NCBI RefSeq assembly: GCF_003703475.1
Contig: NZ_RDQM01000001.1
Span: 147,044 to 211,043 of the forward strand
Length of the DNA stretch: 64,000 bases
Reading direction: 5' to 3'
Source: Allofranklinella schreckenbergeri
Lineage (GTDB): Bacteria; Pseudomonadota; Gammaproteobacteria; Burkholderiales; Burkholderiaceae_C
The position numbers and the translations under genes were made by a program. Under the pieces are notes generated by a model that worked only from the letters and a program-made list of their open reading frames with translations, was not told the DNA's origin and ran no database searches. Within the stretch, counting starts at the first letter, position 1; each line of letters opens with the position of its first letter. Shown one piece after another: positions 12,373-13,590 of the stretch.

Positions 12373-12466
12373 GGTGTAGGGACGGCAGCGGCCTCAAGCG
12401 CGGCAAGCCAGAGGCCAAACAAAAACAACGCCGCTCGGCGGCGGCGGAAAGCAATGCGGTCGATTA

Positions 12467-12482
12467 TGCCAATGCATTGGCA
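12467..12482. promoter_or_regulatory. Perfect 16-bp palindrome TGCCAATGCATTGGCA upstream of nrdF (candidate operator)
   Basis: Exact inverted repeat in the pepN/nrdF divergent region. Confidence 0.4.
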
Positions 12483-12556
12483 AAGAACCCGCCGCCGCTC
12501 TCCGCAAGGCAGACAAGAAAGCGGATGGGCGCGATCTGCGACGCGGCAAAGCGCGT

Positions 12557-12579
12557 GCTATAAACCGGCGATTTATAGC
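12557..12579. promoter_or_regulatory. Inverted repeat GCTATAAA-N7-TTTATAGC overlapping the probable nrdF -10 region (candidate operator)
   Basis: 8-bp perfect arms with a 7-bp spacer, about 50 bp upstream of the nrdF ATG. TATA-rich, so it may overlap the promoter. Confidence 0.4.
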
Positions 12580-12630
12580 CATCGCTATACATCAACCTCT
12601 CACTGTTTTATTTCAGCCAGCTCTGCAGCC

Positions 12631-13590
12631 ATGGACTTGAAAATCACCCGCGCCGTCAACTGGAACCAACTCGAAGACCCCATGGATCTGACCATGTGGA
12701 ACCGCGTCACAGGCAACTTCTGGCTGCCGGAAAAAGTGCCGCTGTCCAACGATCTGCCCTCCTGGCGCACGCTCACCGAGCAGGAACAGCGCACCACCAT
12801 GCACGTCTTCACCGGCCTGACCATGCTCGACACCGTGCAAGCGGCCGTAGGCGCGCCGCGCATGATTGCCGATGCGCAAACCCAGCACGAAGAAGCCGTA
12901 TTCGCCAACTTCACCTTCATGGAGGCGGTGCACGCGCGCAGCTACAGCTCGATCTTCTCAACCCTGTGCAGCACGCAGGAGATCGACGCCGCCTTCCGCT
13001 GGAGTGAGGAAAACCCCTGGCTGCAGGAGAAGGCCGCCATCATCGCGCGCGCCTACCGGGGCGACGACCCGCTCAAGGTCAAGATCCTGTCCGTGCTGAT
13101 GGAGTCGTATTTGTTCTACAGCGGCTTCTTCTGCCCCTTCTACTGGGCCAGCAAAGGCAAGTTGACCAACACGGCCGACCTGATCCGCCTGATCCTGCGC
13201 GATGAGGTCTGCCACGGGTACTACATCGGCTATAAATTCCAGCAGCAGTACCAGCGCCAGCCATTGCCCCGACAGGAACAGCTGCAGCGCTTCACTTACG
13301 ACACGCTGCAAACGCTAATGGCCAACGAGTACCGCTACGCCGCCGATTTGTACGACCCGCTGGGCTGGACCGAGGACGTCAAGCACTACATGCACTACAA
13401 CGCCAACAAGGCGCTGATGAACCTGGGCTTCGAAGCGCTCTACCCCAAAGAGCGCTGCCAGGCGCCCGCCGCCATCCTCGCCGCGCTCGACCCCGGCGCC
13501 AACGAAAACCACGACTTCTTCTCCGGCTCCGGCTCGTCCTACGTCATCGGCAAAACCGAAGTGACCGCAGACGAAGATTGGGCCTTTTAG
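12631..13590 (+). CDS. nrdF: Class Ib ribonucleotide reductase beta subunit (R2F), orphan
   Basis: Metal and radical residues present (D67 context TMLDTVQ, E98xxH101 in [10 protein letters not shown] with Y105, E158 in LMESYLFY, E192xxH195 in RDEVCHGYY). C-terminal ..EDWAF R1-binding tail. The track ORF 9628..13590 is an in-frame read-through; true start is ATG 12631. No nrdE, nrdI or nrdH is adjacent. Confidence 0.85.

Follow-up and report, generated by a model that had tools for sequence, protein, structure and literature searches.

The subject of this analysis is nrdF, the gene for the beta subunit (R2F) of class Ib ribonucleotide reductase (RNR), together with its promoter region, in a stretch of DNA from Allofranklinella schreckenbergeri (hereafter the window, i.e., all 64,000 nucleotides). 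The examined range (12373..13590; positions are those of the window) consists of the 258-bp pepN-nrdF intergenic region (12373..12630), whose first base directly follows the start codon of the divergent pepN gene, and the nrdF open reading frame (ORF), which runs from an ATG at 12631 to a stop codon ending at 13590 and encodes 319 amino acids. As a rule, class Ib RNR genes are transcribed as a single nrdHIEF unit, which is controlled by NrdR and Fur. The gene in the window is monocistronic, lies between pepN and an unrelated membrane-protein gene, and is not part of such an operon (features are listed in table 1). An earlier note on this DNA had described it as standing alone, and this was upheld: tblastn searches with Escherichia coli queries detected no nrdH, nrdI or nrdE in the whole window, which covers 12 kb upstream and 50 kb downstream of the gene. 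The concern that adjacent nrdHIE genes had been lost at a window edge or through an assembly artefact was rejected, given these nrdE-free flanks, the size of the contig (373,681 bp) and the equally solitary state of the gene in six related genomes.

The encoded protein is a genuine, canonical class Ib NrdF. It scored 445.9 bits against the NrdF-specific NCBIfam model TIGR04171 (RNR_1b_NrdF; cutoff 355) and 525 bits against NF007182 (cutoff 471), matched Pfam PF00268, and is 62% identical to E. coli NrdF over the full length; its sequence is that of WP_122237101.1 (A. schreckenbergeri). All of the closest solved structures are R2F proteins of class Ib, namely those of E. coli (3N37), M. tuberculosis (NrdF2, 8J4X), Salmonella (1R2F) and C. 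ammoniagenes (1KGN). None of the six metal ligands (D, E, H, E, E, H) is lost, and the radical tyrosine is kept as well; 9/9 members of the clade described below, when aligned with 69 operon-type NrdF proteins, were identical at the equivalents of D67, E98, H101, Y105, E158, E192 and H195. The SSYV radical-transfer tyrosine and the acidic D-W-x-F tail (...ADEDWAF in the window protein) were invariant in the same nine proteins. The alignment confirmed the complete set of R2F residues and the R1-docking tail that had been read from the translation.

Throughout the clade, about 17 residues are substituted at positions with at least 97% conservation among operon-type NrdF proteins, a comparison set dominated by Enterobacterales; several of these residues lie beside metal ligands. 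Among the clade-wide replacements, several of which are to methionine, are K18M, L65M, L78M, L157M, A193V, Y230M, L168C and S287D (E. coli NrdF numbering). Two other identities of the protein were considered and rejected. An R2-like oxidase, which had been proposed as an alternative, does not fit, as the R2lox model NF006199 gave only 20.9 bits (cutoff 286) compared with 446 bits for the NrdF model. A metal-free class Ie NrdF with a DOPA radical was ruled out because all carboxylate ligands are intact; class Ie structures (7MMP, 6EBO) scored about 115-125 bits below the class Ib ones.

Scanning one genome for each species yielded 80 loci with relatives of this gene. The six closest belong to two Vandammella animalimorsus genomospecies, two Comamonadaceae metagenome-assembled genomes (MAGs), Corticibacter populi and Lampropedia aestuarii (81-98% identity). 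Within about 10 kb of nrdF, none of nrdH, nrdI and nrdE was present in loci L002-L007 and L083-L089. In most other loci, including Comamonas (67% identity), nrdH-nrdI-nrdE-nrdF are adjacent or nrdHIE lies a few kb away from nrdF, and the remaining loci without nearby nrdHIE are four short or actinobacterial ones (L010, L017, L038 and L076). The earlier note's view that nrdHIEF nearly always forms a single operon was too strong, with locus L016 and phage PegLeg (both discussed below) as counterexamples. A protein search indicated that the clade is small: matches were found at 96, 85, 81, 81, 81, 74 and 74% identity, followed by a drop to 69% (freshwater Actinomycetota), and a scan of JGI metagenomes gave no further clade member above 67%. 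Every sequenced Vandammella or Allofranklinella strain in the 90% cluster has nrdF. Named Lampropedia species other than L. aestuarii have PepN and no NrdF match of this clade. Our literature search found no account of a solitary nrdF or of the RNR repertoire of Vandammella.

The solitary gene occupies at least five different chromosomal neighbourhoods across the clade (upstream neighbour named first): pepN and a cysZ-like gene in the window and in L004, a MAG contig with ~95% nucleotide identity to the window; parC and dprA in Vandammella; a prophage integrase and a sod fragment plus bacterioferritin in Corticibacter; CoA-transferase and PNPOx/APH in L. aestuarii; and GntR and DUF333/MliC in two uncultured relatives. 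Nucleotide homology between the window and Vandammella (94%) covers only the coding sequence (CDS) and ~75 nt upstream, ends at the stop codon, and is flanked by unrelated DNA. The pepN gene is not beside nrdF in Vandammella and Corticibacter. An empty-site comparison via pepN was given up, since pepN has other neighbours in these two genera and no clean insertion boundary could be defined.

In the closest outgroup, freshwater Actinomycetota (69% identity; L213 660..5714, also L211 and L212), nrdH-nrdI-nrdE-nrdF is followed by an overlapping Nramp/mntH gene, a string which, judging from gene order, directly couples RNR to manganese import. Class Ib operons are rare in Comamonadaceae, where they are found in a Comamonas subgroup only. 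For the nrdHIEF operon of the Comamonas kerstersii group (L009 7197..10951), the closest NrdE proteins among the matches listed are ~80% identical and come from Rhodobacterales and other Alphaproteobacteria. The comparison suggests that the Comamonas operon may have been acquired independently of the solitary nrdF clade.

Two perfect palindromes upstream of nrdF, TGCCAATGCATTGGCA (palindrome 1) and GCTATAAA-N7-TTTATAGC (palindrome 2), had been pointed out before, and both are present at the positions described. The perfection of a palindrome alone is not evidence of function because perfect 8+8 palindromes are not rare in the window (5 with spacer 0 and 6 with spacer 7, vs 1.8 and 1.6 in shuffles). 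To judge from the alignments, significance comes only from conservation across genomes, and this picks the palindrome at 12574..12589. Palindromes 1 and 2 have no second copy in the window. Palindrome 1 was found only in the window and L004 and is missing upstream of nrdF in other genera; with up to three mismatches, 1.1 matches to it are expected by chance in the window. It is no rarer than chance, and the view that it is a conserved regulatory element was not supported. It was also rejected as an operator of pepN, being missing upstream of pepN in Vandammella and Corticibacter. Palindrome 2 is perfect in the window and L004 only, has 7-nt arms and a 6-nt spacer in Vandammella, and is missing in Corticibacter, Lampropedia and L084. 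A third GCTATAA half-site forms its left arm, and its right arm is the left arm of a TATAGC-N4-GCTATA box; this right arm alone is conserved, as half of the box, and palindrome 2 does not stand as a functional unit.

The TATAGC-N4-GCTATA box was found upstream of 8/8 chromosomal solitary nrdF copies, in five different contexts, and TATAGCCATCGCTATA is its sole perfect match in the window. Where the start codon is clear, the distance from box to start is 57-93 nt; in L084 it is 33 nt, but the start called there probably lies too far upstream. The invariant columns upstream of the gene are TATAG, one spacer A and GCTATA; beyond these, only two upstream A's, a single T of the leader and the start codon do not vary. 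There is only one -10-like hexamer (TATACA, TATAAA or TATACT), which the box overlaps with its right arm, and 5/8 copies have TG just upstream of it. The leaders of Allofranklinella, Vandammella and Lampropedia also share a motif TTCA(A)GCCAG between box and start (window 12600..12620, L002 about 9960..9975, L085 about 9975..9990), and no recognisable Shine-Dalgarno sequence was seen in any of the nrdF copies.

Codon-level divergence was compared between nrdF and other genes. Between the window and Vandammella, synonymous divergence (dS) and the ratio of nonsynonymous to synonymous divergence (dN/dS) were 0.28-0.31 and 0.02-0.04 for nrdF, 0.34 and 0.28 for pepN, and 0.54 and 0.22 for parC; between the window and Corticibacter, they were 0.80 and 0.11 for nrdF and 0.68 and 0.23 for pepN. 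Since dS of nrdF matches that of pepN and its GC content at third codon positions (GC3, 0.87) is the same as that of host genes, these sequences indicate that nrdF is vertically inherited since before the genera split, under stronger constraint than pepN while the genome around it was rearranged. A recent horizontal transfer or mobile cassette had been suggested by the CDS-confined homology and was overturned by the pepN-like dS and host-like GC3. The gene shows no decay, as dN/dS within the clade is 0.02-0.13 and the catalytic residues are intact. The docking tail and the pathway tyrosine are unchanged across the clade despite saturated dS.

A sister copy with 74% identity (P0126, P0376; loci L083 and L295) sits in a temperate-phage nucleotide/replication module with the order thyX, MazG-like pyrophosphohydrolase, nrdF, DNA polymerase A, PDDEXK exonuclease, DksA-like protein and excisionase; no alpha-subunit gene was found in this module. 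The solo-nrdF phage module (L295 1..12700, L083 1..7435) also carries a dGTP diphosphohydrolase/exonuclease gene. Prophage L295 and the chromosomal copy L004 come from one MAG (GCA_030528485.1), which gives two solitary nrdF genes in one genome; no box precedes nrdF in the prophage copies. Mycobacterium phage PegLeg, whose genome is complete, encodes an NrdF-type beta subunit (gp110, 65% identical) and NrdH and no alpha subunit. Of 119 further loci, 20 had no nrdE in the retrieved DNA, and 13 of those 20 were viral contigs. The phage-module location of the nearest sister suggests that the stand-alone gene may have been exchanged with phages. Beta-only carriage is thus a known pattern, one that presumably relies on the alpha subunit of the host. 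Solo nrdF genes in phages and prophages (L083, L295 and PegLeg) would be sensible only if the host supplies alpha, so that a compatible host alpha is implied; this would indirectly support the presence of NrdE in these hosts.

With regard to the regulator, the earlier note had suggested repressor control of Fur, Mur, MntR or other type. The MntR type is now the best supported of these, and the Fur consensus does not fit the box by inspection. MntR boxes are short inverted palindromes in target promoters (PMC13217887), and MntR binds as a Mn-loaded homodimer (PMC8632737). In E. coli, perfect ATAGC-N4-GCTAT sites are present in the promoter regions of mntH (AAACATAGCCTTTGCTATGTTT), mntS (ATATAGCACAGGCTATAT) and mntP (GACATAGCTTAGGCTATATT), while the chance expectation for this pattern in about 11 kb is ~0.01 (estimated as 11,000 x 4^-10). 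The arms of the mntS site (TATAGC-ACAG-GCTATA) are identical to those of the nrdF box. In the divergent mntH-mntR intergenic region of Burkholderia/Caballeronia (two Burkholderiaceae replicons), we found TATACC-N4-GCTATA with CTT or TT after it; this site differs from the nrdF box at one position. The box is missing upstream of canonical nrdHIEF operons, including that of Comamonas.

That the palindromes are not obviously NrdR boxes, as had been said of them, was borne out by a scan with the consensus acaCwAtATaTwGtgt (tandem 16-bp boxes about 31 bp apart), which is reportedly that of Rodionov and Gelfand in 2005. With up to four mismatches, no NrdR box was found upstream of nrdF in the window, L002, L006, L085 or L084; as positive controls, the scan recovered a pair of boxes spaced by 31 bp upstream of Proteus nrdH and a single box upstream of that of E. 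coli. The nrdF leader gave no Rfam match to a riboswitch or other known RNA at E<=1. Taken together, the conserved palindrome is probably an MntR operator.

Other matches to the pattern were also inspected. One in Vreelandella (L029) is inside a NUDIX coding region and was dismissed. A perfect box in prophage L295, considered as a phage operator, lies within a repeat-rich ORF and is probably a chance match. In Corticibacter populi (L207 14476..14489), a perfect GATAGC-TATG-GCTATC palindrome precedes, by 90 bp, a 2OG-Fe(II) oxygenase gene in the vicinity of pepN. In the same species, the leader of mntP (L207 11531..12059) contains GGGGAGTAG and GAGACC motifs reminiscent of the yybP-ykoY manganese riboswitch, with no Rfam match at the gathering threshold.

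A rival to the MntR assignment, which we consider unlikely, is that the palindrome serves another regulator (metal-responsive, redox-responsive or phage-derived) or is just part of a strong promoter, its likeness to MntR sites being coincidental. The box is AT-rich and includes the -10-like hexamer, and its conservation could be partly that of a promoter; moreover, the inspected pieces held no mntR and no second manganese gene with the box, the sister nrdF is phage-borne, and a perfect box can arise by chance in a coding repeat. However, both arms are invariant, including the one outside the -10 hexamer, the 5-4-5 core is the same as in the three E. coli promoters and one base off the Burkholderiaceae mntH-mntR site, and NrdR, Fur and a riboswitch do not fit.

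A reasonable hypothesis, to which we would give a probability of about 0.6, is that the class Ib system is split in these bacteria: NrdF would be kept as a self-contained unit, the beta subunit being a member of the MntR regulon and its partner being encoded elsewhere. This unit, about 1.05 kb in size, would consist of promoter, operator and CDS, separate from any alpha-subunit gene. When manganese is plentiful, a Mn(II)-bound MntR dimer would cover the box over the -10 element and block RNA polymerase; such promoter occlusion appears the most likely mode because the box overlaps the only -10-like hexamer. Manganese scarcity would free the promoter, and NrdF would rise with the low-manganese regulon, like mntH and mntS in E. 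coli. The protein would then form its tyrosyl-radical di-metal cofactor and dock via its DEDWxF tail on an NrdE encoded elsewhere; NrdI might also be encoded elsewhere, or be dispensable if the cofactor is loaded with iron (di-iron). It is likely that NrdE has its gene at another site of the genome because the docking tail and the radical-transfer tyrosine are conserved. There is precedent for the links between manganese shortage and class Ib RNR: in E. coli at low manganese, the MntR-repressed MntS helps to activate NrdEF (PMC4361602), and when manganese is limiting in S. pyogenes, nrdFEI.2 is raised by MtsR, a regulator of the DtxR family (PMC6698748). The gene string of the nearest outgroup, in which mntH is joined to nrdHIEF, is a further precedent.

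Several points weigh against this hypothesis. MntR is assigned to the box by motif similarity only, and the E. coli palindromes are themselves taken to be MntR sites, as reportedly established by Patzer and Hantke 2001 and Waters et al. 2011. Queries with E. coli MntR and MntH (tblastn) gave no match in the retrieved pieces of these genomes, in which mntP was the only such gene found, in Corticibacter. The extra perfect box in L295 shows that such matches arise without function, and a strict sigma-70 scan recovered no full promoter at nrdF. The sign of control (repression, or activation as at E. coli mntP) is one that we infer, and it is not self-evident why a shortage of manganese should induce a manganese enzyme. 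Finally, neither nrdE nor nrdI was found in any inspected sequence of these genomes, so the partner is assumed.

The last point leads to a second alternative, in which the genomes have no NrdE and NrdI, and NrdF serves a non-cognate alpha subunit (class Ia NrdA) or has a role outside RNR (Mn-dependent oxidant chemistry or metal buffering). We regard this as improbable. It would agree with the lack of nrdE, nrdI and nrdH from the window and, in six genomes, from the ~20 kb surrounding the gene, with the rarity of class Ib operons in Comamonadaceae, and with the substitution of the ~17 highly conserved positions, e.g., L65M, L157M and A193V by metal ligands. No NrdE of Vandammella, Corticibacter or Lampropedia was among the best 120 of 8000 matches to Comamonas NrdE, which could be cited in the same sense, but this means little; the set that defined the conserved columns is dominated by Enterobacterales. 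On the other hand, the invariance of docking tail and tyrosine over saturated dS, together with very low dN/dS, points to a conventional alpha, and phage copies of the same clade imply a compatible one in the host.

A third alternative, a recent mobile cassette or the decaying remnant of a lost nrdHIEF operon, would account for the homology that stops ~75 nt upstream and at the stop codon, the prophage integrase abutting nrdF in Corticibacter, the sister copy in a prophage and the Lampropedia species with PepN and no NrdF of this clade, yet it is very improbable and already largely refuted by the codon-level divergence (dS equal to that of pepN, host-like GC3, dN/dS of 0.02-0.13 and intact catalytic residues) and by the presence of nrdF in all sequenced Vandammella and Allofranklinella strains of the cluster.

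The split arrangement that we favour can be compared with several known systems. In its metal ligands, radical and pathway tyrosines and NrdE-binding tail, the protein is like the class Ib NrdF of nrdHIEF operons (E. coli, Salmonella and C. ammoniagenes); unlike there, the nrdF genes of the clade have no adjoining nrdH, nrdI or nrdE and no NrdR boxes, and have their own promoter with a putative MntR-type box. A separately transcribed beta gene is also known in Mycobacteriaceae, where nrdF2 is apart from nrdHIE and an extra nrdF1 exists; in locus L016, nrdF is 5.5 kb from nrdHIE. However, the alpha subunit of Mycobacteriaceae is known and usually lies within a few kb, whereas here none was found within at least 10-50 kb, and the solitary nrdF lineage is betaproteobacterial and differs in regulation. 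Solo nrdF genes of phages (PegLeg gp110 and many IMG/VR contigs) similarly provide beta without alpha, presumably using the host NrdE, but the copy in the window lies amid housekeeping genes, is vertically inherited and has a box of the host metal-sensor type.

As for regulation, no nrd gene is known to be a target of MntR in E. coli, whose nrdHIEF operon is under the control of Fur and NrdR. Fur-linked induction has been described for the E. coli NrdEF system (PMC4361602). The operator core ATAGC-N4-GCTAT is shared with the E. coli MntR regulon, in which mntH and mntS are repressed and mntP is activated; unlike in E. coli, the regulator of the window nrdF is assigned from the box alone. Another parallel is MtsR-nrdFEI.2 of S. 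pyogenes (PMC6698748), in which a class I RNR operon is raised at manganese limitation by a DtxR-family repressor that senses manganese. This system differs in regulator subfamily, operator, Gram-positive host, control of a whole nrdFEI operon and the metal-free class Ie nature of its beta subunit.

Table 1. Features of the nrdF locus and its immediate neighbours in the window
Feature	Position	Strand	Basis or remark
pepN (aminopeptidase N), divergent neighbour, outside the system	9601..12372	-	TIGR02414, 1181 bits; protein 100% identical to A. schreckenbergeri PepN
Palindrome 1, TGCCAATGCATTGGCA, lineage-specific	12467..12482	.	one of 5 perfect 16-mers in the window
Palindrome 2, GCTATAAA-N7-TTTATAGC	12557..12579	.	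right arm = left arm of conserved box
16-bp palindrome TATAGCCATCGCTATA (TATAGC-N4-GCTATA), candidate MntR-type box yATAGC-N4-GCTATr	12574..12589	.	57 nt upstream of ATG
Putative -10-like hexamer TATACA	12586..12591	+	read from the sequence
nrdF, class Ib RNR beta subunit (R2F), monocistronic	12631..13590	+	TIGR04171, PF00268
Weak terminator-like hairpin and T-run 3' of nrdF	13675..13702	+	consensus scan: 3 sites found vs 1.8 expected
CysZ/EI24-family membrane protein, downstream neighbour, outside the system	13688..14806	+	PF07264, 94 bits

The genes around nrdF in the window are all housekeeping genes, and the window copy is not in a phage module. On the pepN side these are genes for a lactate permease, a GntR regulator, an FMN lactate dehydrogenase, a basic amino-acid decarboxylase and a PF10136 protein; downstream they are the CysZ/EI24-family gene, which adjoins nrdF in no other genus, followed by argS and genes for an SPOR protein, RlmH and an MsrAB fusion. 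The CysZ/EI24-family protein has a long Pro/Ala/Ser-rich tail ending in a near-pure Ser/Asp run (...SSPSSDSSSSSDSGSSSSD), which is unusual for the family. The pepN leader contains a GC-rich hairpin and T-run in the orientation of pepN (12429..12446, minus strand). In Vandammella and Corticibacter, a small gene for a Trp-rich protein with a terminator precedes pepN, and the hairpin may be the leftover terminator of a gene lost in a regional rearrangement.

Elsewhere in the window, an rtcR gene (RtcR and sigma-54 activator domains; 28790..30469, minus strand) faces a textbook sigma-54 promoter, TGGCAC-N5-TTGCA (30634..30649). This promoter is followed by tRNA-like modules: a partial Rfam tRNA match at 30863..30927, which was not called by ARAGORN, and a T-arm/CCA-like piece just upstream of it. 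An Rfam scan of the whole window gave this one tRNA-like match only. The arrangement is reminiscent of rsr-rtcBA loci and their Y-RNA or tRNA-like elements.

In many pathogens, class Ib RNR, a manganese-dependent enzyme, serves as the back-up or the main aerobic source of deoxynucleoside triphosphates. In the case described here, the metal-binding subunit alone is uncoupled from the rest of the system and apparently wired to a manganese sensor. An unlinked nrdF, solo nrdF genes of phages and the MntR regulon were already known; what appears to be new is a stand-alone, vertically inherited nrdF with its own MntR-type operator. If true, this would be a clean natural case of controlling an enzyme via its cofactor-bearing subunit and would add an nrd gene to the proteobacterial MntR regulon. 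The solitary nrdF also links to the widespread and little-discussed carriage of the beta subunit only by phages. Should the genomes prove to be without NrdE, the finding would be much more important, and it would run counter to the rule by which NrdF is NrdE-specific and requires NrdI to obtain its manganese cofactor. Vandammella and Allofranklinella are isolates from animal-bite wounds, which face the withholding of metals by the host, and a manganese switch on nrdF may matter during infection.

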